Origin: a virus
IMG/VR virus record: IMGVR_UViG_3300000313_000054
DNA length: 64,000 nt
Reading direction: 5' to 3' (one strand)
Below, piece by piece: positions 4,698 through 51,662 of the stretch (its first letter is position 1; each line of letters opens with the position of its first letter). The position numbers were made by a program, and so were the translations under genes. The notes below the pieces were generated by a model. The model was not told the origin of the DNA. It ran no database searches and worked only from the letters and a program-made list of their open reading frames with translations.

Positions 4698-4958
4698 ATG
4701 AAATTGTTCAAAGAACTTTTGTACTGGTTACATTATCTTGTTAAATTAATGGCTGGAATTTCTTTTATAGTTGTTACTGCTGACCCATTATTAAAAATGC
4801 TTGCGGATATTAGAACTACTACAGCAGAACCCTATGGCTCAGTATTCTTTTGGGCTGTAGCCATCGGTTGGTTTTACCTTATAATTAGATTATTACTATG
4901 GCTCTTTAAAGATTTAATACCAACTAAAAAAGTTGATGAGATTGTTAAAATAAAATAG
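4698..4958 (+). CDS. membrane protein
   Basis: 86-aa ORF with two hydrophobic helices. Confidence 0.55.
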   Translation: MKLFKELLYWLHYLVKLMAGISFIVVTADPLLKMLADIRTTTAEPYGSVFFWAVAIGWFYLIIRLLLWLFKDLIPTKKVDEIVKIK

Positions 4959-4961
4959 GTA

Positions 4962-4990
4962 TTGACATTCTCTGTAGTGCGTGCTAACAT
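4962..4990 (+). promoter_or_regulatory. sigma-70 promoter TTGACA-17-TGcTAACAT; ATG at 4997 lies exactly 6 nt after the -10
   Basis: -35 TTGACA at 4962-4967 and extended -10 TAACAT at 4985-4990 read directly. Confidence 0.6.
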
Positions 4991-4996
4991 AAAAAT

Positions 4997-5254
4997 ATGA
5001 GAAAGATATTTAAGTGGTTGACTAAAAGTAATCATACTTGGTATGACAAAGGATATCATAAAGCGTATCTTATTTTAAGTTGGCTCGTTGTAGTCTTTTT
5101 AATTCCGTTATTCACCTCGATTATATTTATTCACTTGGGGAATATTTTTGAAGCAATCTTTAGTTGGTTAATGTTAGCAAGTGTCATATTAATTGCATTC
5201 TTACTTGAGATGGATATTCAAAAATATAAAAAGTCACTATTGATAAGTAAATAA
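4997..5254 (+). CDS. membrane protein; apparently leaderless mRNA
   Basis: 85-aa ORF starting ATGAGAAAG 6 nt after -10 hexamer; no RBS. Confidence 0.55.
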   Translation: MRKIFKWLTKSNHTWYDKGYHKAYLILSWLVVVFLIPLFTSIIFIHLGNIFEAIFSWLMLASVILIAFLLEMDIQKYKKSLLISK

Positions 5255-5584
5255 GTCAGTGTTATAATCAAAATTAACAGACTTGATAAGCCAACTACCT
5301 TAAATGGCAAGCGCAACATATCAAGTATTACAGAAAGATTTTATAGAGATTAGTTTGCCTGAGCTAGTCTCTATAGAGTCGAAATTAAAAAGTTAATAAG
5401 TAGAAGTTACAGTTGGCTGACAAAACTCAGTTTATAGCGGTTAGTGTGCCAATTACCGACACAGACTGAGATGCTTTAGTGCTTGGGTGTACATGAGAAC
5501 AAACTGGTGAAAATGAGCTTCTATTTTTTAAAAAGTGTATAGTCCTTAGCGTTGATGTAATTCGATGTTAAGATGGTATTTAAT

Positions 5585-5657
5585 GCCGATGTAGCTCAGT
5601 GGTAGAGCAAACCATTTGTAATGGTAAGGTCGGTAGTCCGATTCTAACCCATCGGCT
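5585..5657 (+). tRNA. tRNA-Thr (anticodon UGU), 73 nt, no encoded CCA
   Basis: GCCGATG/CATCGGC acceptor, GCTC...GAGC D-arm, anticodon loop TTTGTAA; hand folded, one G-A mismatch in T-stem. Confidence 0.6.
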
Positions 5658-5668
5658 CTTTTAAAAAT

Positions 5669-5790
5669 TGAATATAGAAGTCTTAGGTGGCGGAATAGGT
5701 AGACGCTGTGGACGCTATGCGATAAAGGTGCAGCCATCATTGACAAGCTCTTAATATCCATGCGATTGAACCTAAGTAAGTAATTTATTT
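5669..5790 (+). ncRNA. unresolved tRNA-like segment (5' half resembles tRNA-Leu: TGGCGGAATAGGTAGACGC) of abnormal length
   Basis: strong similarity of the D-arm region to bacterial tRNA-Leu but no canonical anticodon or T arm found by hand; CCTAAG complementary to acceptor lies about 95 nt downstream. Confidence 0.25.
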
Positions 5791-5799
5791 ATTTAGGAA

Positions 5800-6350
5800 T
5801 GACCATGCAAGACACAAACGTAGAGCATCTAAGGTGACAATGGCAATACTGGTTTACGAGGCGAAAGCACTACGAATTTAAAGAAACAAGGATATTGCTC
5901 AAATCCTTAGACTAAGACTTTTATAGATAACCGAAATATTATAATGTCTACGACTTTTTAGCATGACAGAATAATAAATTAGGTTTGCGTCTGAGAGAGT
6001 CGTTCTTACGATTCGTTATAGCTTAATTGCTATACTTAGTCGCCTTTATTTAGTGGTGGTAATGGCCGAAAGTAGTTAAGGCACGATATGTTTAGTCAAT
6101 TAGGCTAAATGAAAAAGGTAAGCGTGATGTGAGTAAAATCGATTGAATCTCACTAGGCCATCCACCCAATTTAAAAGTTTCATGTTCGATTTAATGTTTC
6201 GTCTTTATGGGGTGTATGGATAGACTATCCAGAGTCGAAAAAGGCTACGTGTCTGGACACATTGGAACGTAGTCGTATGCTAGTAAATGGGGTAAAGGCG
6301 TTTGTATTCTATAGCGAAAGCATGAACCGCAAACACCCCATATTTAGAGT
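5800..6350 (+). ncRNA. approximately 550-nt ORF-free, locally GC-enriched segment with long-range complementarity (GGGGTGT at 6207 vs ACACCCC at 6337); unassigned structured RNA candidate
   Basis: no ORF of 60 aa or more on + strand, multiple hairpins, sits between tRNA genes. Confidence 0.3.
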
Positions 6351-6620: not shown

Positions 6621-6719
6621 TGGTGAGTTGGCGAGTGGGTGTAAGCCAGTAGTCTCGAAAACTACCAGACGACCTTAATAAGGCATCGTCCGTGAGTTCG
6701 AATCTCACCTCATCAGCCA
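6621..6719 (+). tRNA. tRNA-Ser (anticodon CGA), unusually long (99 nt) with about 25-nt variable arm, CCA encoded
   Basis: acceptor TGGTGAG/CTCATCA (one G-U), anticodon stem GTAGT/ACTAC with loop CTCGAAA, T-arm GTGAG-TTCGAAT-CTCAC, ends GCCA. Confidence 0.7.
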
Positions 6720-9331: not shown

Positions 9332-9553
9332 ATGAAAAAGTTATTTAAGTCAATTAAGAATATTGGTATGAACTTAATGTACTTGTTGTTATTAATTACC
9401 ACTTGTTACCAGATATTTACAACCGAAAATTGGTGGTCAATATGGCAATATAAATTAGTTTTTATCATACTTGTTATAGCCTCTCCATTATATCTGTATG
9501 AGTTTATTAAGTGGGTGAAAGGCAAACTGGATAAGAAGAAAGAGGGGAAATAA
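9332..9553 (+). CDS. small membrane protein; C-terminal EFIKWVKGKLDKKKEGK motif recurs at 33334-33384
   Basis: 73 aa; preceded by a 13-nt tandem duplication gaaaaagagaaat x2 at 9308-9333. Confidence 0.5.
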   Translation: MKKLFKSIKNIGMNLMYLLLLITTCYQIFTTENWWSIWQYKLVFIILVIASPLYLYEFIKWVKGKLDKKKEGK

Positions 9554-10263
9554 TGTATCAGAAAGGGTATCACCATACAGAAGAAGAAAAAGAGAAGATT
9601 AGACAAGGTAAGTTAGGCGCAAATAATCCTAATTTTGGTAAGAAATTATCACCGGAAACTTGTGCTAAGATGAGTGCATCACGAACTGGTAAAAAACATC
9701 CTAAGACCGAAACAATGATTGCAAAACAAAAAGAGTCATTAAAAAAGTTTTATAATTCAGAAGATGGTTCAGTTTTTAAAGAACATCTAAGTGAAGTGAA
9801 TAAGGGAACATCTTGGCATAAAGGATTTAGACATGAATTTTCAGACGAAACTAAAAAGAAAATGGGAGTAATACAAAAGAAAAAGTGGCAAGACCCTATT
9901 GAAAGAGACAAACGTGTTGACGCAATTATGAGTGCTGGTAAGCAAGTTCCTAATTATAGAGAATTACAGTTATTATCATATTTGAATGAGGCGAAGTCTG
10001 GTTGGGAGTTTATTGGTAATGGTAAATTACATGGTGAAAAATTCAAGGTTGGTGGTAAATGTCCAGATTTTATATTAGAGGGTACTAAATTATTATGTGA
10101 ACATTATGGTGCTGGATATCATACTGAAGATCAAGTACAACCTAGAATAGAATTTTTTAAACAACTTGGATATGCAACCTTGATTATTTGGCAGAAAGAA
10201 TTAAAATATAAAGAAAAAGTAATACAACGGATTAAGGAATTTGTGGCAGAAAATTATTTTTAA
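9553..10263 (+). CDS. homing-endonuclease-like protein: NUMOD3-type repeats plus C-terminal Vsr/EDxHD-like nuclease domain
   Basis: repeated GKKLSPETCAKMSASRTGK / GFRHEFSDETKKKMGV motifs; C-terminus CPDFILEG...CEHYGAGYHT. Confidence 0.55.
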   Translation: MYQKGYHHTEEEKEKIRQGKLGANNPNFGKKLSPETCAKMSASRTGKKHPKTETMIAKQKESLKKFYNSEDGSVFKEHLSEVNKGTSWHKGFRHEFSDETKKKMGVIQKKKWQDPIERDKRVDAIMSAGKQVPNYRELQLLSYLNEAKSGWEFIGNGKLHGEKFKVGGKCPDFILEGTKLLCEHYGAGYHTEDQVQPRIEFFKQLGYATLIIWQKELKYKEKVIQRIKEFVAENYF

Positions 10264-10272
10264 AATTGCCTA

Positions 10273-10301
10273 TTGACAAGCATAAAAATGTGTGCTACAA
10301 T
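10273..10301 (+). promoter_or_regulatory. sigma-70 promoter TTGACA-17-TGcTACAAT driving the structured RNA locus
   Basis: -35 at 10273-10278, -10 at 10296-10301; upstream aaaattgcctattgac shared with the promoter at 57517. Confidence 0.7.
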
Positions 10302-10481
10302 CTAATTAATAGCTTGAAAGAGCGATTTTAGAGGTCGAGTCTCAAATAAATATTTAGCAATCCGAGTAGCAATATTCGAGGTTGCTTTTTGTTTACGAGA
10401 GATTTTAATAGCTCGAAAGGGCGTGAGTCGGAAGTCAAATTTTTAAATGCAGATGATCTTGGGTTGAAGATACAGCCCCTT

Positions 10482-10641
10482 TATACAGTAATGTATATCG
10501 AATAACCCTGAATATCGGTAAAAGTCTGAGATGATAATGCCGAGGGACAGCCCGAAAGGGAAGCCCGTAGAGACTACCAAGGGGCGACTTAGAAAATAAG
10601 CTGATGGCATAGCCCGAACTGCAATGAAAAACAAATTGCAG
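10482..10641 (+). repeat. structured module copy R1
   Basis: TATACA-gtaa-TGTATA hairpin, aaccctgaatatcgg, CCC-GAAA-GGG, CTTA-gaaaa-TAAG, CTGCAAT-gaaaaacaa-ATTGCAG. Confidence 0.6.
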
Positions 10642-10654
10642 AGTAACAAAAATA

Positions 10655-10966
10655 TTGCTTATCTTCGCAGCCATTTTCGTGTACGTTGGTGTTAACCTGG
10701 AACCTGGTTTGAACACTACCGTCAGCACTATCACTACTCCTACCTATTCCAGTGGTGTTGCTGGTCTTAACGGAGTAATCATGATTGTTTTCGCAGCTAT
10801 GATTATCTTCGGCGTAAAATTACAATGCGCCACTACGAAGCGATTCGTAGTGCAAACCCTGAATATCGGTGGAAGCCTGAAACGGTCACGCCGAGGGACA
10901 GCCCTGAAAAGGGAAGCCCGTAACGACTACCAAGGGGCAACTCTAGTGATAGAGCTGGTGGCATAG
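10655..10966 (+). CDS. small hydrophobic peptide ORF embedded between R1 and R2 (TTG start; alternative ATG at 10787 has RBS GGAG)
   Basis: NTTVSTITTPTYSSGVAGLNG matches the C-terminus of CDS 131-457 (8 of the first 12 residues identical) with mostly synonymous DNA differences; TM segment(s) then K/R-rich tail. Confidence 0.4.
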   Translation: MLIFAAIFVYVGVNLEPGLNTTVSTITTPTYSSGVAGLNGVIMIVFAAMIIFGVKLQCATTKRFVVQTLNIGGSLKRSRRGTALKREARNDYQGATLVIELVA

Positions 10967-10995
10967 TCTGGTCTATAACGAATAACAAGTTATAG
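10831..10995 (+). repeat. structured module copy R2
   Basis: CACTACGAA-gcga-TTCGTAGTG hairpin, aaccctgaatatcgg, CCCT-GAAA-AGGG, CTCTA-gtga-TAGAG, CTATAAC-gaataacaa-GTTATAG. Confidence 0.6.
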
Positions 10996-11407
10996 TTAAC
11001 ACAACGAGTCAAACAAATGAGTGCTGCTGCCTAATAGCAGAAATGGGGAGTGGGTCAAAAGCTCACTCCCCTACTCATACAAAAAATTTCAAAAATAAAA
11101 ATGAGGTAATATGAAAAAGGGAAAGAAACTGAAACTACCTAGCTATGGGATGAAAGACCCGTTAAAAATGAAAAACAAGAAAGATTTTTACAATGACAAG
11201 TCAGGTAGTTTAAAAAAGTTAATGAAATAACAGGAGCGTTTAAAATGAAAACAACTAAGGTCAAAAAATGGGGAATGATGTCTTGAAAGAACAAACCAAT
11301 TAAATCAGAAATGGCACGATTTAAGAAAGATGCTGATATCCATAATGTAAAGAAAAATCCCTTTAAATAAGTCCTAAAGTATCCCTTTTAAATTAGAAAT
11401 TTCTAAG

Positions 11408-11448
11408 TCACACTTGACAATGTGTTAGGTGTGGCTTTTTGTTTTTTA
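11408..11448 (+). terminator. putative terminator (hairpin CACAC...GTGTG then CTTTTTGTTTTTT)
   Basis: stem-loop followed by T-run. Confidence 0.4.
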
Positions 11449-11465
11449 GAGTAGAAAAATAGTTG

Positions 11466-11494
11466 TTGACAAGATTGATTGGTAGTGATAATAT
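11466..11494 (+). promoter_or_regulatory. sigma-70 promoter TTGACA-17-TGaTAATAT; ATG at 11501 is 6 nt after -10
   Basis: -35 at 11466-11471, -10 at 11489-11494. Confidence 0.65.
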
Positions 11495-11500
11495 GTATGT

Positions 11501-11824
11501 ATGGATAAGAAAAAAGATCAAATAATTGGAGTTGTAATTGGATGCGTTCTTTCGATTTTATTAATAAGTGGTTTTGTTTGGCTGTTAAATTATGTAGATA
11601 AGAATACCCCGCCAATAGAAATTAAAGATATAACAAAGCAGGTATCGGCAATAAGTTATGATGAAAGATATGGAACTACGAAGATATTTTTCTCAGATGG
11701 TTGGTGGTTTTATGTAAGTGGGAAGTATGAATTATCTTCAGGACTAACTTATAGAATTGTTTATAAAGAAACGAAACCGTATCCTAGTATTGATACAATA
11801 CAAATTGTAAATGAGGAGAAATAA
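11501..11824 (+). CDS. N-terminally membrane-anchored protein; apparently leaderless
   Basis: 107 aa; TM helix at residues 8-30. Confidence 0.55.
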   Translation: MDKKKDQIIGVVIGCVLSILLISGFVWLLNYVDKNTPPIEIKDITKQVSAISYDERYGTTKIFFSDGWWFYVSGKYELSSGLTYRIVYKETKPYPSIDTIQIVNEEK

Positions 11825-11825
11825 A

Positions 11826-12500
11826 ATGGAAAATAAAACTGTAAAATGTAAATTCTTCGACCCTGAAAAGCCAAAAATAATCGAGAAAAATTTTAAATTA
11901 ATTAGAGGGAACTGTGTTATCTACCGTGAACATATTTATCAAATTAGACCTGATTTCCAAGAACCATTTTACTTTAGAGTAGACAGTCGTTTCCCTATAA
12001 GTCAAGAGTCTTTTAGTAGATTAAAAAGTGAAGAAGTTTATCTAAATCGTAATCGAGAAAATAAAGGTGGAATAAATATGGAAATTGAAAAGCGTCCATT
12101 ATTAGATGGTAAATATCAGAAAGAATGGTTTAGAAAATATAGTAAGCGAATTGTTAATGACTATTATATTTTGGGACTAGAAAAAACTAAAGAAAAGTAT
12201 GGTATTAGTTCTCAGTTAGTGTCAGTAGCTATTAAAGTAAATCCGAAATCTACTGGATATGATGGGAAAGGTATGGTTGATGTGCTTGAATTATCTGAAG
12301 AAATTACACAGAGTAAAATACAGAATAGAATGGAATTAATGAAATCATTTATAGGTGCAAAGCCGTTAGAGTTTAGATTTTCTTTGACAATTACTGAGTC
12401 TGATCTTGACTTTATCAAAGAAGAAAATTTAGTAGATGTATGGCGAGTAATTAGTCTATTATATCTAGCCAAAAAAGAAAAGAATAAAGAGGACAAATAA
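11826..12500 (+). CDS. hypothetical protein (224 aa)
   Basis: start moved to the ATG preceded by RBS gaggag. Confidence 0.6.
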   Translation: MENKTVKCKFFDPEKPKIIEKNFKLIRGNCVIYREHIYQIRPDFQEPFYFRVDSRFPISQESFSRLKSEEVYLNRNRENKGGINMEIEKRPLLDGKYQKEWFRKYSKRIVNDYYILGLEKTKEKYGISSQLVSVAIKVNPKSTGYDGKGMVDVLELSEEITQSKIQNRMELMKSFIGAKPLEFRFSLTITESDLDFIKEENLVDVWRVISLLYLAKKEKNKEDK

Positions 12501-39974: not shown

Positions 39975-40730
39975 ATGAAGGTAGTTATATTTTGTGGTGG
40001 TCGTGGTTTTAGACTTCAGGAGGAAACTGAGTATCGTCCTAAACCTTTGGTATCAATTGGTGGCATACCTATCTTAGTCCATATAATGAATATCTATTCC
40101 CGTTATGGAATTAATGAATTTATTCTATGTTTGGGTTATAAAGGTCAGATGATAAAAGACTACTTTATTAATTATGACACAATGACAAACGATGTCACAG
40201 TTGTATTAGGGGATGAACATAAAATTATAGTGGAAAGGAAACAAGAAAAACTTAATTCAGTAGTTACAATGGTGGATACTGGATTAGAAACAATGACAAG
40301 TGAACGCCTAACCAGAATTAAAAAATATATTGGAAATGAAACATTTATGCTAACTTATGGCGATGGTGTTTCAGATATAAATATTCAAGACTTACTTCTA
40401 TTTCACAAAGCACATGGAAAGATTGCAACAGTTACAGCAGTCCACCCGACTTCTAAGTATGGCGTAATTAAATCAGAACATGGTGAAGTCACAAAGTTCT
40501 CAGAAAAACCAGTACAAAGTGACAGAATTAGTGCTGGTTTTTTTGTATTTGAGCCGGAAGTTTTTAATTATCTAGATGACGGAATGTTAGAACAAACCCC
40601 ATTACATAAGTTGTCAGAAAATAAACAATTAAGAGCTTTTGAGCATAATGGATGTTTTCATTCTATGGATACTTATAGTGATTTTAATGAATTAAATAAA
40701 ATGTGGAATGAGGGGAAAGCTAAATGGTAA
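39975..40730 (+). CDS. rfbF: glucose-1-phosphate cytidylyltransferase
   Basis: [34 protein letters not shown]... is the RfbF/DdhA signature. Confidence 0.8.
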
Positions 40731-41698
40731 ATTGGCAGGACAGACCTGTTTTAGTTACAGGTGCTACAGGATTATTAGGTGGTTGGCTTACTAAAAGGTT
40801 AATAGATTTAAATGCGGGTGTTGTTTGTTTAGTAAGAGATTGGAACCCGAATAGTTTATTTGAAATGAACAGATTAGAGGAATCAGTATGTGTAGTTAAT
40901 GGCGATATTACAGACCAGAGATTATTAGAAAGAATATTAGGTGAATATGAAATTGAGATGGTATTCCATTTAGCTGCCCAAACTATTGTAGGGATTGCAA
41001 ATCGTAATCCAGCATCAACATTTGAATCCAATATTAAAGGTACGTGGTCATTATTAGAAGCGTGTAGAAGAAGTCCTAAAGTTCAGTCAATTGTAGTCGC
41101 ATCAACGGATAAAAGTTATCGTGAGGATTGTAAGTTACCTTATAAAGAAGATATGGCATTAGGTGGTAGTTATCCTTACGATGTTTCAAAATCTTGTGCC
41201 GATTTAATTGCACAATCCTACGGTAAAACTTATCAACTTCCCGTGGCTATTACACGATGTGGAAACTTATACGGTGGTGGTGATTTGAATTGGAATAGAG
41301 TGATACCTGGAACAATCAGATCAGTTATTCGTGGTGAGCAACCAGTAATTAGATCGAATGGAAAGTTTATCAGAGATTATGTTTACGTTCAAGATGCTGT
41401 AAACGCATATATAAAATTATCAGAGTGTGTCTCAGAAAACAATGTTTTAAATGGTCAGGCGTTTAATTTTTCCAATGATACCCCAATGAACGTATTGCAA
41501 ATAGTGGATAGTGTATTAAATTTAATGCAAAGTAAACTGAAACTTATTGTTCAAAATAAAGCGAGTAACGAGATATTAGAACAAAGTTTATCATCAGAAA
41601 AAGCATTTAATCTATTGGGTTGGAAGTCTGAGTATACATTAGAACAAGGTTTGGATGAAACTATTAAGTGGTATAAGGGGTATTTCAGTGAAAGATAG
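40724..41698 (+). CDS. rfbG: CDP-glucose 4,6-dehydratase (SDR)
   Basis: [19 protein letters not shown] Rossmann motif, YDVSK catalytic pair. Confidence 0.7.
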
Positions 41699-42896
41699 AA
41701 TAAGAGTTCCTTATGCTGGTAGAGTCTACGATGATAACGAAATTAATAATTTAATTGATGCTTCTAAAAAGTTCTGGTTAACAAGTGGAGAATATTCTGG
41801 AAAATTTAAGAAAGGATTATCAGAATTTACAGGTGTTAAATACGTTGTCTTAACTAATTCAGGTTCGTCAGCTAATCTCTTAGCAATTTCAAGTCTTAAA
41901 GCAATTGGTAAATTAAAAGATGGTGATGAAGTAATCACTACAGCCTGTGGTTTCCCAACTACCCTAAATCCTATTATTCAGAATAATTTAGTTCCAGTAT
42001 TTGTAGACGTAGACGATACGTTAAATATCGATGTTACTAAACTTGAAGCGGCATTATCGCCTAAAGTTAAAGCACTAATGATACCTCATACTCTAGGTAA
42101 CCCCTTTGATATTTCAAGAGTAATGTCTTTCGCAATAAGACATGAAATCGAGATTATAGCAGATTGTTGTGATGCGTTGGGGTCACAGTATCGAAATATG
42201 TCAGTAGAGCAATGTGCAACTATTTCTACGCACTCGTTCTACCCTGCTCATGGAATTACGTGCGGTCAGGGTGGAGCAGTTTTAACTAATTCTAAAGAGC
42301 TATATCGTGTAATTAATTCTATGAATACTTGGGGGCGTGACTGCACCTGTAATTCAGGACAAGATAATAAATGTGGTAAAAGATTTGAAGGACAATATGG
42401 TGATTTACCATTTGGTTACGACCATAAATATGTTTATTCATACATAGGTTATAATTTTGAAATGACTGATTTGCAGTCGGCAATTGGTGTCGCTCAATTA
42501 GAAAAGTTGCCCGATTTCATAAGACTTAGAAAGAGTAATTATAAGTATTTGTATAACAATCTTAAAAAGTTTGGCGTTGTATTTAAGTTTCCCACAGTCA
42601 ATCAAGGAGCAGACCCTTGTTGGTTCTCATTTCCAATAACAATGAGAAATACAACAGCATTAAGAAGGAATGATGTTGTTAAATATTTAGAAGAAAACAG
42701 TATTCAGACACGCTTGTTATTTGGTGGAAATTTATTAAGACAACCTGCTTATAAAAATATTCAACATAGGGTAGTTGGAGAATTAACAAATACAGATTAC
42801 ATTATGAATAATTCGTTTTTCATTGGGGTCTATCCTGGTTTGGATAAAAAGAAATTAGACTACATGATTGAGGCGATTGAGGACTTGGTGGGATGA
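41655..42896 (+). CDS. rfbH: DegT/DnrJ family PMP enzyme with C-x-C-x7-C Fe-S motif: CDP-4-keto-6-deoxyglucose 3-dehydrase (E1)-like
   Basis: aminotransferase fold motifs plus [11 protein letters not shown], the [2Fe-2S] motif characteristic of E1; likely start is the GTG at 41688. Confidence 0.6.
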
Positions 42897-43831
42897 ACTT
42901 ACTATCTAAAGATTTAAAATATATGGCTGATAATGTGGATTGGGTTGAATTAAACAATTCACGTATTTTAATAACAGGTGCATCAGGGTTTGTTGGAAGT
43001 TGGATGGTAGACAGTATTCTCTATGCTAAAGATAAATTTAAGTTAGATATTGAAGTTTGTGTTTTAACCAGAGACTTTAATAAATTATTGGATATGTATG
43101 GTAATAAGGTTACTATTTATAGTGGGGATGTAAGAGATGTTTCATTAGGTGGGTTTGATTATATTATCCATTTAGCTTCACATGAAGGTCATAGATTAAT
43201 GGTTGATAATCCGATAGAAATGTACGATATCATAGCGAATGGTGCTTGGAATATGTTAAGACTTGCATGCAAATGTAGTTGTAAAAAAATCCTTTATATG
43301 AGTTCTGGAGTAGTAACTAAAGAAGAAATTAATCCTTATTCACAGGGTAAAAAGATGGGTGAATATCTTTGTAATCTCTATCACGAACAATACGGGTTGG
43401 ATATAAAAATAGCCAGAGGATTTGATTTCATTGGTGGTAGAATACCATTAGACAAACACTTTGCAATAGGCAATTTTATAAACGATATATTAAATGATAG
43501 GCCAGTAGACATAAAGAGTGATGGACTTGCCGTAAGGTCGTATCTTTATATGGCAGATGTTGTAGTTTGGTTGTGGACTATATTATTAAAAGGGCAATCA
43601 TGTGTTCCATATAACGTTGGTTCTCATAAGGCATATACAATAGGTAGTGTGGCGAGAATGGTAGCGGATTTTGGTAGGTATAATAAAGGTATAAATTGTC
43701 ACTCATTAAGTAGCGGAGTAAACGATAGTTATTATCCTGAAATTAATAACGTAAAAGACTTGGGGTTGATGCAAATGGTAGGATTAAACGATGCTATTAA
43801 AATGACATTAGATTGGTATAAAAACTTTTAA
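42893..43831 (+). CDS. NAD-dependent sugar epimerase/reductase (SDR)
   Basis: ITGASGFVGSW, YSQGK. Confidence 0.6.
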   Translation: MNLLSKDLKYMADNVDWVELNNSRILITGASGFVGSWMVDSILYAKDKFKLDIEVCVLTRDFNKLLDMYGNKVTIYSGDVRDVSLGGFDYIIHLASHEGHRLMVDNPIEMYDIIANGAWNMLRLACKCSCKKILYMSSGVVTKEEINPYSQGKKMGEYLCNLYHEQYGLDIKIARGFDFIGGRIPLDKHFAIGNFINDILNDRPVDIKSDGLAVRSYLYMADVVVWLWTILLKGQSCVPYNVGSHKAYTIGSVARMVADFGRYNKGINCHSLSSGVNDSYYPEINNVKDLGLMQMVGLNDAIKMTLDWYKNF

Positions 43832-43885
43832 TAAGTGTTGGTTAATGGTATAATTAAGTATGTAGTAAGGATTGGATTTATATAA

Positions 43886-45379
43886 ATGAGACTAAATGAA
43901 GTAATGCCATTATTTATACTCGAAATGGCTAATTCCCACTCAGGTAATTTGGAACATGGTTTAAAAATAATTAACGAAATGCGTAAAGCAACTCAAAACT
44001 TTAATTTCAAATTAGCTATAAAGTTTCAGTACAGGGACATAGACTCATTCATCCATCCAGATTTTAAAGGTGATTATTCGTTTAAATATATAAAAAGGTT
44101 TTCAGAAACACGACTAAAAGAATCTGATTTATTGACTTTAAAAACTGAAGCTCAAAGGTTAGGTTTCATCACGATGTGTACTCCATTTGATGAAAACTCA
44201 GTGGACTTAGTTGAAAAGCATAATTACGATATCATAAAGATCGCCTCATGTTCATTTACCGACTGGCCTCTATTAGAAAGAATTATAAAGACAGATAAAC
44301 CAATAATTGCTTCAACAGCAGGTATTGATATGAAAGATATTGAGAGTTTTGTTTCCTTTATGGAACATCGGAATAAAGACTTTGCATTGTTACATTGTGT
44401 AGCGCAGTATCCAACACCTGATAAATATTTATCGTTGGGTAGAATTAAAATTCTCAAAGACAAATTCCCTGAAATACCGATTGGTTATTCAACACACGAA
44501 AATCCAGATAACTATGATTCTATTAAAGTTGCTATCGGTCAAGGTGCTACAATATTTGAGAAACATGTAGCTATACATACCGATGAGATAATGCCTAATG
44601 CGTATTCTGCGATACCAGAACAAGTAGGAAAGTGGTTACAGTCTGCTTTACACGCTTACGAAATGTTGGAAGTTTCAGAACCAAAAGAGAACGAATTAAA
44701 AGAGTTGAAAGCCTTACAACGTGGTGCGTATTGTAAGCGTAAAATTAAAGTAGGTGAACCTGTAAAATTAGAAGATGTATTCTTTGCTATACCAACAGTT
44801 GAAGGGCAATATACAGCCAACGATTTTTCAAAATATGTAGAATTTAAGACTAAAATTGATATTCCAGAAAAATACGCATTACTTAAAGATGATATCCAAA
44901 AAATAGATAAAAGAAATGGAGTATCCGTTATCGTTCATAAGGTTAATGACTTTATTAAACAATCTGGTTTGTCTATCCCATCTAAGGTCGATATAGAAGT
45001 TTCACATCACTACGGAATGGAATTTTTTGATTTGTATGGTATGACTATTTTTACAATTATTAATGAGGAGTACTGTAAGAAATTATTAGTTTTATTGCCT
45101 AATCAACAACATCCTACTCAGTACCATAAAAAGAAAACAGAAACATTCCATATATTAGCAGGTGAAGTATTTATTACTTTAAACGGATGTAAACAGAAAT
45201 ACGTAAAAGATGATATTATCACAGTTAATATTGGTGTAAAACATTTTATGGAAACATTAACTGGTGTAGTGATTGAGGAAATATCAAGTACTCATTACAA
45301 AGATGACTCTTTTTATACAGATGAAAAGATAAACTCTAATCCAAATAGAAAAACAAAATTAACATATTGGTTGGAATAA
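43886..45379 (+). CDS. NeuB/PseI-like sugar-acid synthase (PEP condensing) with SAF domain and an extra C-terminal cupin-like domain
   Basis: N-terminal FILEMANSHSGNLEHGLKII pattern, SAF-like RKIKVGEPVKLEDVF, C-terminal 150-aa extension. Confidence 0.5.
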   Translation: MRLNEVMPLFILEMANSHSGNLEHGLKIINEMRKATQNFNFKLAIKFQYRDIDSFIHPDFKGDYSFKYIKRFSETRLKESDLLTLKTEAQRLGFITMCTPFDENSVDLVEKHNYDIIKIASCSFTDWPLLERIIKTDKPIIASTAGIDMKDIESFVSFMEHRNKDFALLHCVAQYPTPDKYLSLGRIKILKDKFPEIPIGYSTHENPDNYDSIKVAIGQGATIFEKHVAIHTDEIMPNAYSAIPEQVGKWLQSALHAYEMLEVSEPKENELKELKALQRGAYCKRKIKVGEPVKLEDVFFAIPTVEGQYTANDFSKYVEFKTKIDIPEKYALLKDDIQKIDKRNGVSVIVHKVNDFIKQSGLSIPSKVDIEVSHHYGMEFFDLYGMTIFTIINEEYCKKLLVLLPNQQHPTQYHKKKTETFHILAGEVFITLNGCKQKYVKDDIITVNIGVKHFMETLTGVVIEEISSTHYKDDSFYTDEKINSNPNRKTKLTYWLE

Positions 45380-45381
45380 AA

Positions 45382-45681
45382 ATGATATATGGTATTGATA
45401 TGGATGGAGTAATTTGTAAAACTAATGGGACTGATTATCAACATAGTGTACCAGTTAGTGACGTAATCGACAAAATAAATTCATTATATCACAAAGGCGA
45501 TAAGATAATTATTTATACAGCAAGAGGAACCAAGTCTGGATTAGATTTAAGACAACTAACGCAGAGCCAATTAAAAGCGTGGGACGTTAAGTACCATGAA
45601 TTGATATTCGGGAAGCCAGTCTTTGATATTTATGTTGGTGATGAAGCAATCAATATAATAAATTGGATGGAGAGTAAATGA
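45382..45681 (+). CDS. small HAD-superfamily phosphatase
   Basis: MIYGIDMDGVI begins with the DxDGV motif I. Confidence 0.5.
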   Translation: MIYGIDMDGVICKTNGTDYQHSVPVSDVIDKINSLYHKGDKIIIYTARGTKSGLDLRQLTQSQLKAWDVKYHELIFGKPVFDIYVGDEAINIINWMESK

Positions 45682-46733
45682 TAATACAGCAACAAGAAGA
45701 AATCTTAAAACGTAATTATGTTAAAGAAATGAAACCGTATGTTTACAGGAAAATGATGAAGTTTCCAGAAAAAGTAGCTCGTGGTGAAAGCGTTGCGATA
45801 ATCCAATTCCAGTATGATTATAAATGTAATTTCAGGTGTGTTCATTGTTCGATTAAACGATTTCAAAATAAAAAAGATGTTCGTAAAATGTCTATTAATG
45901 ATGTTAAAAACTTATCAAAACAGGCAGATGAATTGGGACTTGCAAGGTTCGTTATTACAGGTGGAGAACCACTAATTTTTAAAGACTTTGACCAATTAGT
46001 GAGTGCTATAGACCCACATAAATTTTATATTAATTGTGATACTAATGGTTGGTTTTTAGATAGACTGAAAGTAAAACATTTAAAGTCCATTGGAGTAGAT
46101 AGAATACAATTAAGTATTGATAGCCTTGATAGAAAAGAGCATGATGATTTTAGAATGGCAGAAGGTTCACATGAAAGAGCTATGAAAGCTGTTGACTTTT
46201 GTTTGCAAGAAGGTATGAACATTTTTATTCAAACCGTAGTTTCTAAACAAAGATTATATACTCAAGAATTTGTTGAGTTTATAAAATATTTTAACAAAAA
46301 AAATGTCGGCGTATTTGTTTCATTTGCAAAACCAGTAGGAAGTTGGCAGGGTAATTTTGACGTATTAATAAACGATAATGACCTAATGTATTTTGAGAAT
46401 GCTTTGCAGAGTAGATATAAAGTATTTTCTCATTTAACACCATCCTATGGTAGTAAAGGTGGTTGCGTAGCATCTACAAATATACTATCAATTAATGAGA
46501 CAGGTGACGTACTTCCATGTATTTATTTTCCTGTATCAATAGGTAATATCTTTGATGAATCATTAAAAGATATACTCGAAAGGGCAGTTAGATTAAAACC
46601 TTTTAAGACTGACATTTGCCCAATGGCAGTTAAGAGCGACTTTATTGAGAAATACCTTGTGAAAACATATAACAAGGACTTACCAGTAGATTATAGAGAA
46701 ATATTTAGTGAGGAAGATTTTATTAATGGGTAA
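45678..46733 (+). CDS. radical SAM enzyme with C-terminal Cys-rich (SPASM/twitch-like) region
   Basis: CNFRCVHC CxxxCxxC motif; later GGCVASTN...CIYFP cysteines. Confidence 0.65.
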   Translation: MIIQQQEEILKRNYVKEMKPYVYRKMMKFPEKVARGESVAIIQFQYDYKCNFRCVHCSIKRFQNKKDVRKMSINDVKNLSKQADELGLARFVITGGEPLIFKDFDQLVSAIDPHKFYINCDTNGWFLDRLKVKHLKSIGVDRIQLSIDSLDRKEHDDFRMAEGSHERAMKAVDFCLQEGMNIFIQTVVSKQRLYTQEFVEFIKYFNKKNVGVFVSFAKPVGSWQGNFDVLINDNDLMYFENALQSRYKVFSHLTPSYGSKGGCVASTNILSINETGDVLPCIYFPVSIGNIFDESLKDILERAVRLKPFKTDICPMAVKSDFIEKYLVKTYNKDLPVDYREIFSEEDFING

Positions 46734-47745
46734 TAAAGCTACAGATGTAAGTGGAACAGCACCAGGTGGACAACGTATACGATTGGTAGACTCTTTGCCG
46801 TTAAAAACACCTTACCTTATTGAGATATTCCCTAGTTATCTTTGTAATTTTAAATGTAAGTATTGTATACATTCGATACCATTAAAAGAACGTGGTTACA
46901 TATCAGATAAGATACACATGGACTTTGTAATGTATAAAAGATGTATTGATGACATTAGTAAGTTCCCTGAAAAATTAAAAGTTTTAAGATTTGCAGGAAT
47001 GGGAGAACCTTTACTACATCCAGATATTGTGGGGATGGTTGCGTATGCAAAATATAAAAACATAGCCGATAAAATAGAGATATTAACTAATGGCTCATTA
47101 TTAACTCATAAGTTATCTGATGCGTTAATTAAAGCAGGTTTAACACGACTATATGTCTCCTTGCAAGGTTTATCAAGTGAACGATATCTCGAAGTTAGTG
47201 GAATAAAATTGGACTTTGATAAGTTTGTTGACAATATTAGGTATTATTATGAATCTAAAGGTGACTTAAAAATTCACATAAAAATTATTGACTACACATT
47301 GAAGGATGATAAAGAAAAGGCTCAGTTTTACCAAATATTTAGTGGCATTTGTGATACTATAGGAATAGAATTGGCAAGTCCGATCTATCCGTATGTTGAT
47401 TATAATAAAGTGCTAGAGAAAAATAATGATACTAAAACACAGTTTGGATTATGTTTGAATAATATTAAGACTTGTCCACAACCATTTTTCAGGTTACATA
47501 TAATCCCAGACTTTAATGTTATTCCATGTTACTCTATGGAATATCCTGAAATAATTGGAAACTGTGCGAATGATTCAATCGTTGATATTTGGAAAGGTGG
47601 TAATTTAAAAAAGTTTAGATTAGGTATGTTAAAAGAGGGCGTTTGTTTTAATAAGATTTGTAATAAATGTAAAATTATTAAATGTAGAATATTTCAAGAG
47701 GACATTCTGGATAACGATGTTGAGAGATTAAAGGGGTTATATTAA
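46726..47745 (+). CDS. second radical SAM enzyme with C-terminal Cys-rich region
   Basis: CNFKCKYC; start placed at ATGGGTAA overlapping the upstream stop. Confidence 0.65.
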   Translation: MGNKATDVSGTAPGGQRIRLVDSLPLKTPYLIEIFPSYLCNFKCKYCIHSIPLKERGYISDKIHMDFVMYKRCIDDISKFPEKLKVLRFAGMGEPLLHPDIVGMVAYAKYKNIADKIEILTNGSLLTHKLSDALIKAGLTRLYVSLQGLSSERYLEVSGIKLDFDKFVDNIRYYYESKGDLKIHIKIIDYTLKDDKEKAQFYQIFSGICDTIGIELASPIYPYVDYNKVLEKNNDTKTQFGLCLNNIKTCPQPFFRLHIIPDFNVIPCYSMEYPEIIGNCANDSIVDIWKGGNLKKFRLGMLKEGVCFNKICNKCKIIKCRIFQEDILDNDVERLKGLY

Positions 47746-47746
47746 A

Positions 47747-49402
47747 TTGAGATTATCAGATTTTGTCTTTAAATATTTAAAAGAGTATGGTGTTAATCAC
47801 GTATTTACATTAGTGGGTGGTGGCTCAATGTATCTTGACGATTCATTAGGGCATTCAGGAATACCATTTACTTGTAACCTGCATGAACAAGCATGTGCTA
47901 TATCTGCAATAGCCTATGCAGAATATAATAATAAATTAGGAGTATGTCTTGTTACAACTGCACCAGGTGGAACGAATACTATTACAGGTGTAGCAGGTGC
48001 ATGGTTAGATTCAGTGCCACTACTTGTTATCTCAGGACAAGTTAAACGTGCAGATTTAAAAAGTGGGAAGTTAAGACAACGTGGATTCCAAGAATTAGAC
48101 GTTGTTAAAATAGCACATTCGATTACTAAATACGCTGTTATGGTTAAAGAACCAACAGAAATAAAATATCATTTAGATAGGGCAATAAGTTTAGCAACAC
48201 ATGGTAGGAAAGCACCAGTTTGGTTGGATATACCATTAGATGTCCAACTAAGCGAAGTAGATGAATCTAAATTAAAAGGATTTACTGGTGACATAGACAA
48301 TAAATTAACTAATCATGTTGTTCAACATAAAGTTATAGGGACAATAAATTATTTAAACTACGCAGAGAAACCAGTTATCCTAGTCGGTAACGGGTGTCGT
48401 TCTAGTATTGATAAACTAATTGAGTTAGTTCAAGGTTTGAACATACCAATATTAACTACATGGAAAGCTATGGATTTGTTTGATAACAATGATTCGTTAT
48501 ATTGTGGTAGACCTGGAATGGTTGGTCAACAAGGTGCTAATATTATTCAGAACGAATGTGATTTACTGATATCTATTGGAGCAAGATTAGATTTGGGACA
48601 AACGGGATATGATGTTAAAAGTTTTGCACCAAAAGCAAAGAAGATAGTAGTTGATTTAGACTCAGCAGAAATAGGAAAGATAGATAGTATTAAAGTTCCA
48701 ATTTGTTGTGATGCAGAATTATTTATTGAGGAAATGCTAACACAAAAACACAGTATCAAGATTAGAGATAATCAATGGTTGCTTAGTTGTAGATTATTAG
48801 CATGTAAAAACATATTAGTCAATAATAGTCCATACGAAAGTGTTGATACTTATAATTTAGTAGATGTTATCGCTAATAATATGAACGAGTCGGATGTGTT
48901 AGTTCCGGCAAGTTCAGGACAAGCAGCAGAAATAACTATGCAGAACTTTAGAGTTAAAAATGGACAGCGTATACTTAATTTTCCAGCATTAGGGTCAATG
49001 GGGTTTGGTATTTGTTCTTCCATAGGCGCATGTTTGGCAAGTAGTAAAAAGAGAACTATATGTATTGAGGGTGATGGTTCTTTCGCTATGAATACTCAAG
49101 AGTTGGAGACTATACATAGGTTGCATTTACCGATTAAAATATTTGTTTTAAACAACTATGGGTATCGTAGTTTGCGGTCTACTCAAGACAGATATTTCAA
49201 TGGATTTCATGTAGGTAGTTCCTTAGATAGTGGACTAACTTTACCCAATATTAGAGGTATTGCCGAGGCGTATTCGATAGATTATCAAAGAATAGATAAT
49301 GAATTTAGATTAGATAATTGGATAAGAGAATATCTTAGAGATGATAAGCCACGCATCATTGAAGTTAAAACAAACTATAATCAGGAAACAATAAAATGTT
49401 AA
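47747..49402 (+). CDS. thiamine-diphosphate-dependent enzyme (acetolactate-synthase/YerE-like)
   Basis: TTG start; IEGDGSFAMNTQELETI TPP-binding motif; 3-domain size. Confidence 0.65.
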   Translation: MRLSDFVFKYLKEYGVNHVFTLVGGGSMYLDDSLGHSGIPFTCNLHEQACAISAIAYAEYNNKLGVCLVTTAPGGTNTITGVAGAWLDSVPLLVISGQVKRADLKSGKLRQRGFQELDVVKIAHSITKYAVMVKEPTEIKYHLDRAISLATHGRKAPVWLDIPLDVQLSEVDESKLKGFTGDIDNKLTNHVVQHKVIGTINYLNYAEKPVILVGNGCRSSIDKLIELVQGLNIPILTTWKAMDLFDNNDSLYCGRPGMVGQQGANIIQNECDLLISIGARLDLGQTGYDVKSFAPKAKKIVVDLDSAEIGKIDSIKVPICCDAELFIEEMLTQKHSIKIRDNQWLLSCRLLACKNILVNNSPYESVDTYNLVDVIANNMNESDVLVPASSGQAAEITMQNFRVKNGQRILNFPALGSMGFGICSSIGACLASSKKRTICIEGDGSFAMNTQELETIHRLHLPIKIFVLNNYGYRSLRSTQDRYFNGFHVGSSLDSGLTLPNIRGIAEAYSIDYQRIDNEFRLDNWIREYLRDDKPRIIEVKTNYNQETIKC

Positions 49403-50379
49403 TATCAATTTGTATACCAACTTATAATAGAGCGTTATTATTAGATAGATCACTAGATTCTATTATTAAAGAGTTTTTAGATTATGATATTGAGATAATT
49501 ATATCAGATAATGCTTCATCAGATAATACTCAAGAAGTAGTTAGTGGGTATCAAGAGGAATATTCGTTTATTAAGTACTTTAGGAACGCTACCAACTTAG
49601 GATTAGATGAGAACGCCGTAATTTGCATAAAGAAGGCAATTGGTAAGTATGTCTTTATGTTCTCAGATGATGATATTTTATTACATGGATGTGCCAAAGA
49701 AATTATGCAAGTTATTAATGAGTTAAATCCTAACTTTATGTACTTGAATTACAAAAATTTTGGTGAAAAATCGAATGTAGTATTCCATTGGGACAAAGTG
49801 AAAGATTTAGAGAATATAATTTACAAGAATGGTTATAAAATGGTTCTTGAATTATATCCCACTCACTTTTCGGCAATGATTTATAAACGTGATGAGGTTT
49901 TAAAATATATATCTAGTTTAGAACAGTATAGAGATTGTGGATATGACAGAGGGTATGCCACTTCAACGTTAGCCCACCATATTTTGTTAGAGTCAAAACC
50001 ACCATTCGTTTTTATTGGTAGATGTTGTGCAGAAGTGGAGTTTCCAACTAATAAAAGAGATTATAATTTAATTCAAGTTTATTGCATTGATATAATCAAA
50101 CATTGCCAGAATCTTAGATGTAATAGACTTATAAATAGTTTTCAATTAAACCAAATAGTTAATAAACATGTTTTATGGCATACTACTAAACTTATTGTGT
50201 TAGCTAAGGGAACTAATAAGTTAACAAAGAATGAATGTAAGTTAATATGGGATCATTGTAATGGTTTTTGGTTATCATATTTCTGCGTATTTCCATCCTT
50301 GGTGCTACCCAATATTATTTTAAAATACATTCTTGGTATTGTTTTAAAGTATCGTAGATTAAGTGTTGAAAATGAATAA
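49396..50379 (+). CDS. family 2 glycosyltransferase
   Basis: ISICIPTYNR...IIISDNASSDNT. Confidence 0.65.
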   Translation: MLISICIPTYNRALLLDRSLDSIIKEFLDYDIEIIISDNASSDNTQEVVSGYQEEYSFIKYFRNATNLGLDENAVICIKKAIGKYVFMFSDDDILLHGCAKEIMQVINELNPNFMYLNYKNFGEKSNVVFHWDKVKDLENIIYKNGYKMVLELYPTHFSAMIYKRDEVLKYISSLEQYRDCGYDRGYATSTLAHHILLESKPPFVFIGRCCAEVEFPTNKRDYNLIQVYCIDIIKHCQNLRCNRLINSFQLNQIVNKHVLWHTTKLIVLAKGTNKLTKNECKLIWDHCNGFWLSYFCVFPSLVLPNIILKYILGIVLKYRRLSVENE

Positions 50380-50707
50380 AATTTTTAAACAGTACAACAT
50401 AAAAGGCGTTGGTTCCTCCATTTATACTCTGTATTTAGCAGCCCCAATGATAGGAATATTTATGTATATCATTAACGCCTTTACTTTTTATGTAGTAGCT
50501 AGAGATAAATATTTCCCTTGGATTAATCCCCCACTTTTTATATTATTTGCTTGTGTAGGTTTAATACTTTTACTATTTGTATTTTTTAAATTTGTCTTAC
50601 CATCGTATATATCATTTATTAATAGACAGTCTTATATCCATAATAATCCGATACAAATGGATTTAGCTAAGATAAAAAAGAAATTAGGGATAGAAGATGA
50701 TGAATAA
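50363..50707 (+). CDS. GtrA-like small membrane protein (polyprenol-sugar flippase component)
   Basis: 114 aa, 3-4 TM, immediately upstream of a GtrB-like gene. Confidence 0.45.
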   Translation: MLKMNKIFKQYNIKGVGSSIYTLYLAAPMIGIFMYIINAFTFYVVARDKYFPWINPPLFILFACVGLILLLFVFFKFVLPSYISFINRQSYIHNNPIQMDLAKIKKKLGIEDDE

Positions 50708-51638
50708 GAAGTTAATTTCAATAGTAACTCCTGTCTATAATGAATCAAGTAATATAAATTATATAAGACAAGATGTACTAAATGTAATGAGAGATTTAAA
50801 AAGTTACGAGCATGAGCATATATTTATAGACAATGCGTCTACAGATAATACTTTAATTCTTTTGAAAGAGTTGGCAAAAGAAGATAAACGAGTTAAGATT
50901 ATCAGGAATAATAGAAATTTTGGTCATATTCGTTCACCTTATTATGGTTTGTTACAAACCAAAGGGGATGTTGTAACAATTATCTCTGCCGATGGTCAAG
51001 ACCCTCCAAGCTTAATTAAGGATTTCGTAAAAGAATGGGAGCATGGTGCTAAAGTAGTTGTAGGGGTGAAAGTTAATAGCAAAGAGAATTTTTTAAGATT
51101 CAATTTACGTAAAGGTTATTATAAAATTCTAAGTAGACTTTCAGATGTTCCATTAGTTGAGAATTTTATGGGATTCGGTTTATATGATAGAATAGTAATT
51201 GATAAGTTAAAAGAGATTGATGACCCATATCCATATTTAAGGGGTTTGGTTTCTGAATTAGGATATAGTACTTCAAGGGTGGAATATTATCAGCCTAAAA
51301 GAAAAAATGGTAAGAGTCACAATAATTTTTACACTATATTTGACATAGCTTTATTAGGTATAACTAATAATACAAAAGTTCCATTAAGGGTTGCTACAAT
51401 ATTGGGCTTTTGTTTTTCAACAGTTAGTTTTATCGTAGGGATTGTTTATCTTATTTATAAGTTATTGAATTGGGGGAGTTTTGAAGTAGGTCTTGCACCA
51501 ATGGTTATAGGGATGTCATTTTTAGGTGGTATACAAATATTATTTTTAGGATTATTAGGTGAGTATATTGGGGCTATTTACACTCAAGTTTTACACAGAC
51601 CATTAGTTATCGAGAAAGAACGGATAAATTTTGATTAA
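50697..51638 (+). CDS. GtrB/ArnC/DPM1-like polyprenol-phosphate sugar transferase (GT2 with C-terminal TM pair)
   Basis: SIVTPVYNE, DNASTD, ADGQDPP (DxD), C-terminal TM helices and GEYIGAIY. Confidence 0.8.
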   Translation: MMNKKLISIVTPVYNESSNINYIRQDVLNVMRDLKSYEHEHIFIDNASTDNTLILLKELAKEDKRVKIIRNNRNFGHIRSPYYGLLQTKGDVVTIISADGQDPPSLIKDFVKEWEHGAKVVVGVKVNSKENFLRFNLRKGYYKILSRLSDVPLVENFMGFGLYDRIVIDKLKEIDDPYPYLRGLVSELGYSTSRVEYYQPKRKNGKSHNNFYTIFDIALLGITNNTKVPLRVATILGFCFSTVSFIVGIVYLIYKLLNWGSFEVGLAPMVIGMSFLGGIQILFLGLLGEYIGAIYTQVLHRPLVIEKERINFD

Positions 51639-51662
51639 AGAGATTTATATAAAGGAGCAAAA

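Follow-up and report, generated by a model that had tools for sequence, protein, structure and literature searches.

The closest described counterparts of the locus considered here are phage genes split by group I introns. In PMC10136302, which cites Landthaler & Shub 1999, orf142 of Staphylococcus phage Twort is described as carrying three group I introns, and splicing as well as exon skipping between the similar introns are presented there as experimentally demonstrated. Collaborative (trans) homing, in which an intron without an open reading frame (ORF) is combined with an adjacent free-standing endonuclease, has been described for the cyanophage psbA/F-CphI system (PMC3984707). The locus analysed in this study lies at positions 10273-11100 of a 64,000-nucleotide (nt) stretch of viral DNA (IMG/VR record IMGVR_UViG_3300000313_000054), the whole of which is referred to as the window. 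The original prediction for this locus was a promoter-driven, ornate structured RNA of about 800 nt with two pairs of related modules (S1/S2 and R1/R2) and no conventional gene. The present analysis led to another reading, to which a probability of roughly nine in ten was assigned: the promoter at 10273 drives the mRNA of a 67-codon gene for a membrane protein, and this gene is split by two compact group I introns that contain no ORF. In this reading, R1 and R2 are the P2-P9 catalytic cores of two separate group I introns excised from the mRNA. The element belongs to a known kind and is no new RNA class. The host gene, the exceptional intron density and the blindness of Rfam to the compact intron subtype are new.

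The spliced coding sequence (CDS), join(10447..10464, 10658..10815, 11007..11034), was 204 nt long and its translation was MQMILGLIFAAIFVYVGVNLEPGLNTTVSTITTPTYSSGVAGLNGVIMIVFAAMIIFGVVKQMSAAA. The unspliced frame ended at a TGA (10465-10467) directly after codon 6. When the 67-amino-acid (aa) product was compared with 5.8 billion proteins, the top match was P0001, an uninterrupted 67-aa ORF with 99% identity over 100% of the query, and approximately 40 more full-length uninterrupted homologues crossed both junctions without a gap. The intact 204-nt gene was present in four contigs (L009-L012). The joined exons of the window differed from the gene of L009 at 49 of 204 nt, and 40 of these 49 differences fell on third codon positions. 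Because 42 of the 43 differing codons were synonymous and 1 was nonsynonymous, the frame created by splicing is under strong purifying selection. The statement that about 800 nt lacked a conventional gene was thus not borne out, since 10658-10815 is a coding exon that forms a conserved 67-codon ORF together with 10447-10464 and 11007-11034.

The splice sites were placed by a rule derived from six viral contigs that share the core. In contig L007, the intron lay between AGT AAC CCG T and GT GGT GAA, and its removal rebuilt the NrdD motif S-N-P-C-G-E. The restored motif therefore fixed the 5' splice site after the U of the U.G pair that closes P1 and the 3' splice site after the G that ends the UAACA..G tail beyond P9. 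Applied to the window, the rule gave intron 1 as 10465-10657 and intron 2 as 10816-11006, and the joined exons matched the intron-less alleles, which fixed G10657 and G11006 as the intron ends. The junction of intron 2 (GGC GT/A GTC, with the slash at the splice site) was backed by the intron-less alleles and by same-site introns in L023, L028 and L035, and the product of exon 3 was identical to the C-terminus of P0001. Two other placements were tried and rejected. With the introns ending at the P9 hairpins themselves (G10641/G10643 and G10995), a frameshift or a stop one codon past the junction resulted. A longer intron 2 that would include the 3' three-way junction, end at G11103 and continue in frame into ORF 11111 was discarded because P0001 shares the ending VKQMSAAA with exon 3 and a GAGG ribosome-binding site of its own precedes ORF 11111.

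The 67-aa protein had no Pfam or NCBIfam match. The AlphaFold model was a helical hairpin with a predicted local distance difference test (pLDDT) value of 69, and it had no match in PDB. A protein profile search returned just 60 representative clusters among 1.84 billion, many of them truncated by introns. Database ORFs such as P0048 and P0018 were read-throughs from exon 2 into an intron. Gene callers overlook the interrupted gene, and the databases hold truncated or read-through ORFs of this kind in its place. A direct repeat was also observed inside exon 2 (10651-10674 against 10777-10800), and the predicted transmembrane helices LIFAAIF and IVFAAMI look like the outcome of an ancient internal duplication.

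The fold of the introns was evaluated with 34 non-redundant homologues of the subtype, which were aligned by MAFFT without structural input. The structure was written from intron 2 and comprised 48 pairs in P2, P3, P4, P5, P6, P6a, P8 and P9 and the P7 pseudoknot. Across the homologues, the P2-P9 pairs were 92.4% paired, whereas the value was 34-40% when the 3' partners were slid by one to three columns. Two-sided changes occurred in 34 of the 48 pairs, and the covariation score was 0.533 against 0.07-0.10 for the slid controls. The variants of P3 were CCCU/GGGG, CCUC/GAGG, CUCC/GGAG, UUCC/GGAA, CUGC/GCAG and CCGC/GCGG, and those of P6 were GGG/CCC, GGC/GCC, GAG/CUC, GAC/GUC and CGC/GCG. RNAalifold, which was run independently, recovered the same helices with compensatory changes in 27 of its 35 pairs. 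In group I introns, P7 is built from the classical R and S elements, with the sequences GACUA and AUAGUC. The pairing GACUA/UAGUC was found in intron 2 and in 33 of the 34 homologues, and intron 1 had GACUA/UAGCC. Because P7 is invariant, its support comes from conservation and topology and not from covariation.

In the helix P1, the end of the upstream exon pairs with the internal guide sequence. In intron 1, GGGU/UG (slash at the splice site) paired with CAGCCC and the splice-site wobble was U10464.G10475; in intron 2, GGCGU/A paired with UGCGCC and the wobble was U10815.G10827. The internal guide sequence covaried with the exon at the same site, with GGCGU and GCGCC in the window against GGGAU and GUCCC in L028. 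By eye, only CCAA separated P7 from P3' and P8 directly followed P3', so there was no room for P7.1/P7.2. The two extra 3' hairpins P9.1 and P9.2 were absent in the window copies and present in the nrdD-type homologues. As to subgroup, the introns are provisionally described as IA-like. A search with the DNA pattern GAATATCGG..GACTACCAA gave 175 distinct stretches, of which 37 had the S element; the rest were discarded as chance matches to coding DNA.

Much of what the original prediction had reported on the modules was upheld. The introns were 70% identical, and R1 and R2 contained the direct repeats 10504-10553 against 10855-10904 (84%), 10555-10589 against 10908-10942 (91%) and 10599-10637 against 10953-10991 (74%). 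The limits given for R1 and R2 coincided nearly exactly with P2-P9. The compensatory hairpins that had been listed are all real and correspond to P6a (CCC-GAAA-GGG), P8 (CUUA-GAAAA-UAAG) and P9 (CUGCAAU..AUUGCAG), within a fold that covaries in the 34 homologues. Selection on RNA structure in R1 and R2 was likewise confirmed, and so were the common architecture of the two copies, with its compensatory changes, and the lack of a possible protein reading.

Homology to known self-splicing introns was established with a covariance model (R1) built from the intron subtype of the window. The search space was 100 kb, composed of the window and regions of T4 and phage Quidividi. In the window, the model matched intron 1 (10480-10641, 142 bits) and intron 2 (10832-10995, 157 bits) and nothing else, and the next matches were the nrdD, nrdB and td introns of T4 (E = 2.7e-5, 7.1e-5 and 2.2e-4, respectively). 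The Rfam group I model RF00028 scored 105 bits on the T4 nrdD intron and 57-75 bits on seven introns within the 67-codon gene of relatives. The seven included introns at both insertion sites of the window, namely CDS nt 18 in L028 (1772-1963) and nt 176 in L023, L035 and L056. The covariance model R1 gave 84-96 bits on these RF00028-positive introns. Hence, the suggestion of an undescribed RNA class did not hold, since the subtype model finds the T4 introns and RF00028 matches same-site introns. According to an alignment of the subtype with the RF00028 consensus, the architecture was the same, down to P6a and the 3x3 internal loop of P6, and the sequence of the P6 region differed (GGG-ACA-hairpin-AAG-CCC in the subtype versus GC-UAA-hairpin-AAU-GU in the consensus).

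Homologous introns were also found in named phages. In a sensitive blastn search against phage genomes, R1 and R2 both matched one 138-bp stretch in Pseudaeromonas phage KLEP7 (L001, OM654377), which separates two CDS that are each annotated 'ribonucleoside triphosphate reductase'. The gap of approximately 230 nt in nrdD at 1146-1375 of KLEP7 is a group I intron of this subtype that the record leaves without annotation. This phage nrdD was deposited as two CDS because the single group I model of Rfam misses the compact subtype, and alignment A4 and covariance model R1 would correct such annotations. Moreover, blastn matched 10459-10510 of the window to Twort-like phages of Staphylococcus. In phage Quidividi, the match sits in a terminase gene whose annotation reads 'interrupted by two introns', and the 5' end of intron 1 (50 nt) had 86-90% identity to the start of the annotated Staphylococcus phage terminase intron. 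The intron lengths of 189-193 nt were compact and inside the reported range. A claim to the smallest known group I intron was dropped, as bacterial tRNA introns down to 184 bp have been reported (PMC13011429).

Several observations weigh against an mRNA with two spliced group I introns. RF00028 missed both window introns even at E ≤ 10. It also had no match to the subtype intron of L028 at E ≤ 1 and none at the gathering threshold for approximately 15 other introns of the subtype; in all, it found 0 of about 19 that were tested. This failure was treated as a sensitivity gap of the Rfam model and not as evidence against membership. The original prediction had named the lack of an Rfam hit as part of what would refute it. 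The scan did return no GOLLD, ROOL or other match in 10200-11200 at E ≤ 10, and such a rule would wrongly reject a ribozyme. Furthermore, P7 of intron 1 contained the mismatch A10573.C10613, at a pair that is A-U in the other 33 homologues. The mismatch adjoins the predicted guanosine-binding G-C pair, which we take to be the counterpart of Tetrahymena G264-C311, and intron 1 may consequently splice poorly or need help. P1 was only 6 bp in each window intron, and no convincing P10 was found in either of them. The terminator-like leader hairpin at 10356-10394 would reduce the transcription that reaches the gene, and the use of the promoter and the transcript ends at the locus are predictions.

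Some of these weaknesses would also suit an explanation in which one or both introns are decayed, so that they do not self-splice or need a protein cofactor and the gene is crippled or dependent on help in trans. The P7 mismatch of intron 1 is the sole one among the 34 homologues, both introns have an A.C mismatch in P8, P1 is short and there is no intron-encoded maturase. Some phage introns, according to PMC11878797, splice only within infected cells. Against decay, the exons are intact under purifying selection, all other core pairs are kept, and both copies score 142-157 bits with the family model. Contig L013, from a JGI metagenome, was identical across the locus, which is weak support because it possibly represents the same data. 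Decay of this kind was considered unlikely.

The two interpretations carried by the original prediction were found far less probable. A single large non-coding RNA of about 800 nt with duplicated modules, either GOLLD/ROOL-like or of an undescribed class, would agree with the strong promoter at 10273, the GC-rich structured region within an AT-rich genome, the repeated modules with compensatory changes and the nearby tRNA genes. The likeness to GOLLD and ROOL is superficial and consists of a structured, GC-enriched RNA near tRNAs in a possibly phage-derived region. Neither GOLLD (RF01998) nor ROOL (RF03087) was matched at the gathering threshold anywhere in the window, and the locus resolves into exons and two ribozymes of approximately 190 nt. 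Strong selection at the protein level acts on the stretch that separates the modules (42 synonymous versus 1 non-synonymous codon change), relatives without R1 and R2 keep the exons contiguous, and the module occurs singly inside nrdD and terminase genes. Hence, one ornate RNA is very improbable. Tandem riboswitch-like RNAs that control downstream genes were given equally little credence. Two similar structured domains do follow the promoter in tandem, and the leader has a terminator-like hairpin. Nevertheless, R1 and R2 lie within the coding sequence and not in a 5' untranslated region, they are missing from the intact alleles, and no riboswitch family matched in Rfam (to E ≤ 10 in 10200-11200). 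The group I topology, the R and S elements and a terminal G exactly at the exon boundary also speak against cis-regulation.

In the preferred reading of two group I introns, both would be catalytically active, and their splicing is deduced from conservation. Each intron would fold into a group I core with P1-P2, a P4-P6 stack, P9 and a P3-P7-P8 stack that contains the P3/P7 pseudoknot. Pairing between the end of the upstream exon and the internal guide sequence would leave a U.G wobble as the mark of the 5' splice site. This site would be attacked by an external guanosine that occupies P7. The terminal G of the intron (G10657 or G11006) would then occupy the same pocket, and the 3'-OH of the freed exon would ligate the exons, by which the 67-codon reading frame would be restored. 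The coordinates of the introns, exons and other features are given in Table 1.

Table 1. Features of the intron-bearing locus and of its surroundings in the window (roles are predicted from sequence and folding).
Feature	Position	Strand	Details
Sigma-70-type promoter	10273..10301	+	TTGACA, 17-nt spacer, TG-extended TACAAT; 11/12 consensus positions
S1, first leader copy	10306..10357	+	GAAA-capped hairpin 10312-10323; Shine-Dalgarno-like AGAGGUC 10330-10336; putative relic AUA AAU AUU UAG 10346-10357
Terminator-like hairpin, then UUUUUGUUU	10356..10394	+	RNAfold 13-bp stem, -14.6 kcal/mol
S2, predicted working leader	10405..10446	+	GAAA-capped hairpin 10411-10422; Shine-Dalgarno-like UCGGAAGUC 10428-10436; repeat of S1
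Exon 1	10447..10464	+	ATG CAG ATG ATC TTG GGT = MQMILG; matches residues 1-6 of uninterrupted 67-aa homologues
Group I intron 1	10465..10657	+	193 nt, no ORF; tail AGUAACAAAAAUAUUG, omega-G = G10657
Intron 1, P1-P5			P1 10461-10466/10473-10478; P2 10482-87/10492-97; P3 10506-09/10581-84; P4 10515-20/10538-43; P5 10524-26/10533-35
Intron 1, P6-P9			P6 10544-46/10564-66; P6a 10551-53/10558-60; P7 10572-76/10610-14; P8 10585-91/10597-10603; P9 10619-25/10635-41
Exon 2	10658..10815	+	158 nt; residues 7-59; two predicted transmembrane helices; tblastn identity 96%
Group I intron 2	10816..11006	+	191 nt, no ORF; tail UUAACACAACG, omega-G = G11006
Intron 2, P1-P5			P1 10811-10816/10826-10831; P2 10832-39/10844-51; P3 10857-60/10934-37; P4 10866-71/10889-94; P5 10875-77/10884-86
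Intron 2, P6-P9			P6 10895-97/10917-19; P6a 10902-05/10910-13; P7 10925-29/10964-68; P8 10938-45/10950-57; P9 10973-79/10989-95
Exon 3	11007..11034	+	A GTC AAA CAA ATG AGT GCT GCT GCC TAA; completes V59, encodes VKQMSAAA, stop
3' three-way junction	11017..11079	+	AUGAGUG/UACUCAU stem; CUGCU..AGCAG hairpin holding stop codon; GC-rich hairpin GGGGAGUG..CACUCCCC; no U-tract
First canonical intrinsic terminator downstream	11405..11447	+	15-bp stem, then T-run
Endonuclease-like ORF, 236 aa	9553..10263	+	directly upstream of intron-bearing gene; free-standing
tRNA-Thr(UGU)	5585-5658		Rfam
tRNA-Ser(CGA) adjoining tRNA-Ser(UGA)	6621-6719		long extra arms, 13 and 26 nt in Rfam alignment

The extended -10 promoter of the original prediction was recovered as the best site within 9500-12000 and is probably active, and the intron-less relative L009 had a TG-extended TATAAT at the equivalent position. 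The pairing of S1 with S2 was also reproduced (10306-10324 against 10405-10423, 89% identity). S1 and S2 appear to be two copies of the leader of the gene, each with a hairpin and a Shine-Dalgarno-like motif, of which S2 would serve the gene. The motif UCGGAGGUC was kept 10-14 nt ahead of the start codon in approximately 60 homologous loci, which points to UCGGAAGUC in S2 as the ribosome-binding region. S1 is located where the transcript is predicted to begin and resembles the Shine-Dalgarno-plus-start region of the homologues (CGGAGGUC ...AUA AAU AUG). Its AUA AAU AUU UAG would be a three-codon relic of their first codons, and S1 as a whole is probably a duplicated or relic leader left by a rearrangement, or an attenuator. 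The hairpin between S1 and S2 may be an attenuator or a relic; a consensus terminator scan made no call at 10356-10394, possibly because the stem is bulged. In many homologues (L031-L034, L038, L041, L046 and others), ATA replaced the ATG of the window, 10-12 nt after CGGAGGUC, and these homologues may use the rare ATA initiation codon.

The element at the 3' end (11017-11079) had an RNAfold energy of -31.9 kcal/mol, and L009 had a GC-rich hairpin at the equivalent position. It is predicted to act as a 3' stabiliser or as a weak terminator. No standard terminator was found near 11100, where the RNA of the original prediction stops, and the first one downstream, at 11405-11437, is the probable end of the transcription unit. 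The next promoter-like site after it was at 11466-11494.

The distribution of introns in the gene family was surveyed by tblastn on 76 metagenomic loci and one viral contig, in which the 67-aa gene often occurred in two or three tandem copies. Junctions were mapped by a T before the intron, a G at the intron end and exact restoration of the frame, and every mapped junction in the relatives could be placed in this way. Nine clear insertion sites were obtained within the 201 coding nt, at CDS nt 18, 41, 53, 70, 92, 137, 140, 161 and 176. The mapping gave one further position, nt 153 in L021, which probably stands for site 161 placed wrongly. L078 had three introns in the gene, and L084 had at least four (nt 53, 137, 161 and 176) in the part of the gene held on the contig. 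At and around 951-989 of L084, consecutive group I introns were separated by micro-exons of 24 and 15 nt. The same insertion sites were occupied by both intron subtypes, and LAGLIDADG ORFs were present inside introns of some relatives (L064 and L084). The family illustrates the extent to which introns can invade one short, highly conserved gene. We suggest tentatively, and regard as somewhat doubtful, that no other protein-coding gene seen so far in bacteria or phages is as dense in introns. We also conjecture that the intron density is maintained by the competition of co-infecting relatives, with the introns and flanking endonucleases serving as marker-exclusion weapons.

Introns of the same subtype were also observed elsewhere. 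On two genome contigs, L201 (1325-1539; a cyanobacterial metagenome-assembled genome, MAG) and L226 (3262-3476), they lay in a tRNA-like context, between GGTAGAGCGGGTGACTGT and ..CTGTAATCACTAG, and are probably anticodon-loop introns. L144, a contig binned as a Thermodesulfobacteriota MAG, had three group I introns within 900 nt (4830-5694), two of them in the site-137 context of apparent tandem copies of the 67-aa gene. This contig may be a mis-binned mobile element.

The ORF directly upstream of the gene (9553-10263) matched NUMOD3 (3.3e-12) and DUF559, which has a Vsr-like nuclease fold (1.7e-4), in Pfam. It also matched TIGR01453 'group I intron endonuclease' below the threshold (4.7e-5) and PDB 3hrl 'endonuclease-like protein' (E = 0.003), and no similarity was detected between it and the VSR endonuclease that a Quidividi intron encodes. 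Its product is probably a free-standing homing endonuclease that mobilises the locus. At the equivalent upstream position (5459-5911), the intron-less L009 had a different ORF that was HNH-like by its Cys and His motifs. The presence of different endonuclease-like genes at one position suggests repeated invasion by free-standing homing endonucleases. In most relatives (L016, L017, L023, L024, L039 and others), a conserved, very basic small ORF (..KKYVFTAKRRAALKKAQAAARRKN..GKG*) lay directly upstream of the 67-aa gene. This small ORF was absent from the window, in which the endonuclease-like ORF and S1 occupy its place.

The window had 33% GC. Its ORFs of 180 aa or more numbered 28, and every one of them was on the + strand. 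At the gathering threshold, Rfam reported three tRNAs only in the whole window. A DnaJ-domain ORF and an SPFH-domain ORF were also present. A sugar-nucleotide/glycan cluster at 39975-53521 comprised a nucleotidyl transferase, two epimerase/dehydratases, an aminotransferase, radical S-adenosylmethionine (SAM) proteins, a thiamine pyrophosphate (TPP) enzyme and GtrB-like glycosyltransferases. Two giant ORFs were observed: that at 19132-26892 (2586 aa) had no Pfam, PHROG or NCBIfam match, and that at 58804-62649 (1281 aa) had a DUF2341 domain only. In the relatives, a giant ORF lay just downstream of the 67-aa gene, and its product in L009 had 2803 residues. No capsid, portal or terminase was recognised among the 27 of 28 large ORFs that were scanned, nor any phage structural gene in the 64 kb, and megablast of the window against known phages gave nothing beyond the intron fragment. 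The related contigs are listed as viral in IMG/VR, and a phage origin of the window is plausible.

The locus can be compared with three described systems. As with psbA/F-CphI, the ORF-less introns of the window adjoin an endonuclease-like gene, and here the activity and the target of the endonuclease are putative. The td, nrdB and nrdD (sunY) introns of T4, annotated 'group 1A' in NC_000866, have the same core topology as the window introns. Their J8/7-P7'-P9 segment is nearly identical to that of the window introns (..AUAUAGUCUG..CUGCA..UGCAG), and the GACUA/UAGUC P7 is common to both. Homologues of the window introns occupy nrdD of other phages, in which SNPCGE is restored. The window introns differ from those of T4 in their length of just 191-193 nt and the lack of an ORF. 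T4 td presumably carries P7.1/P7.2 between P3' and P8, where the window introns show no helices. Twort orf142 is alike in being a small phage ORF that contains several closely related ORF-less group I introns with short exons between them. By analogy with it, the two similar introns of the window could pair across exon 2 and skip this exon; if true, such skipping would tune the amount of the membrane protein. The gene family offers a natural system for tandem group I introns with very short exons and for collaborative homing by free-standing endonucleases. The host genes differ, with 142 codons in Twort and 67 in the window, and splicing in the window is a prediction from the sequence. Moreover, orf142 has three introns, whereas introns occur at nine sites in the gene family of the window, with as many as four in one gene.

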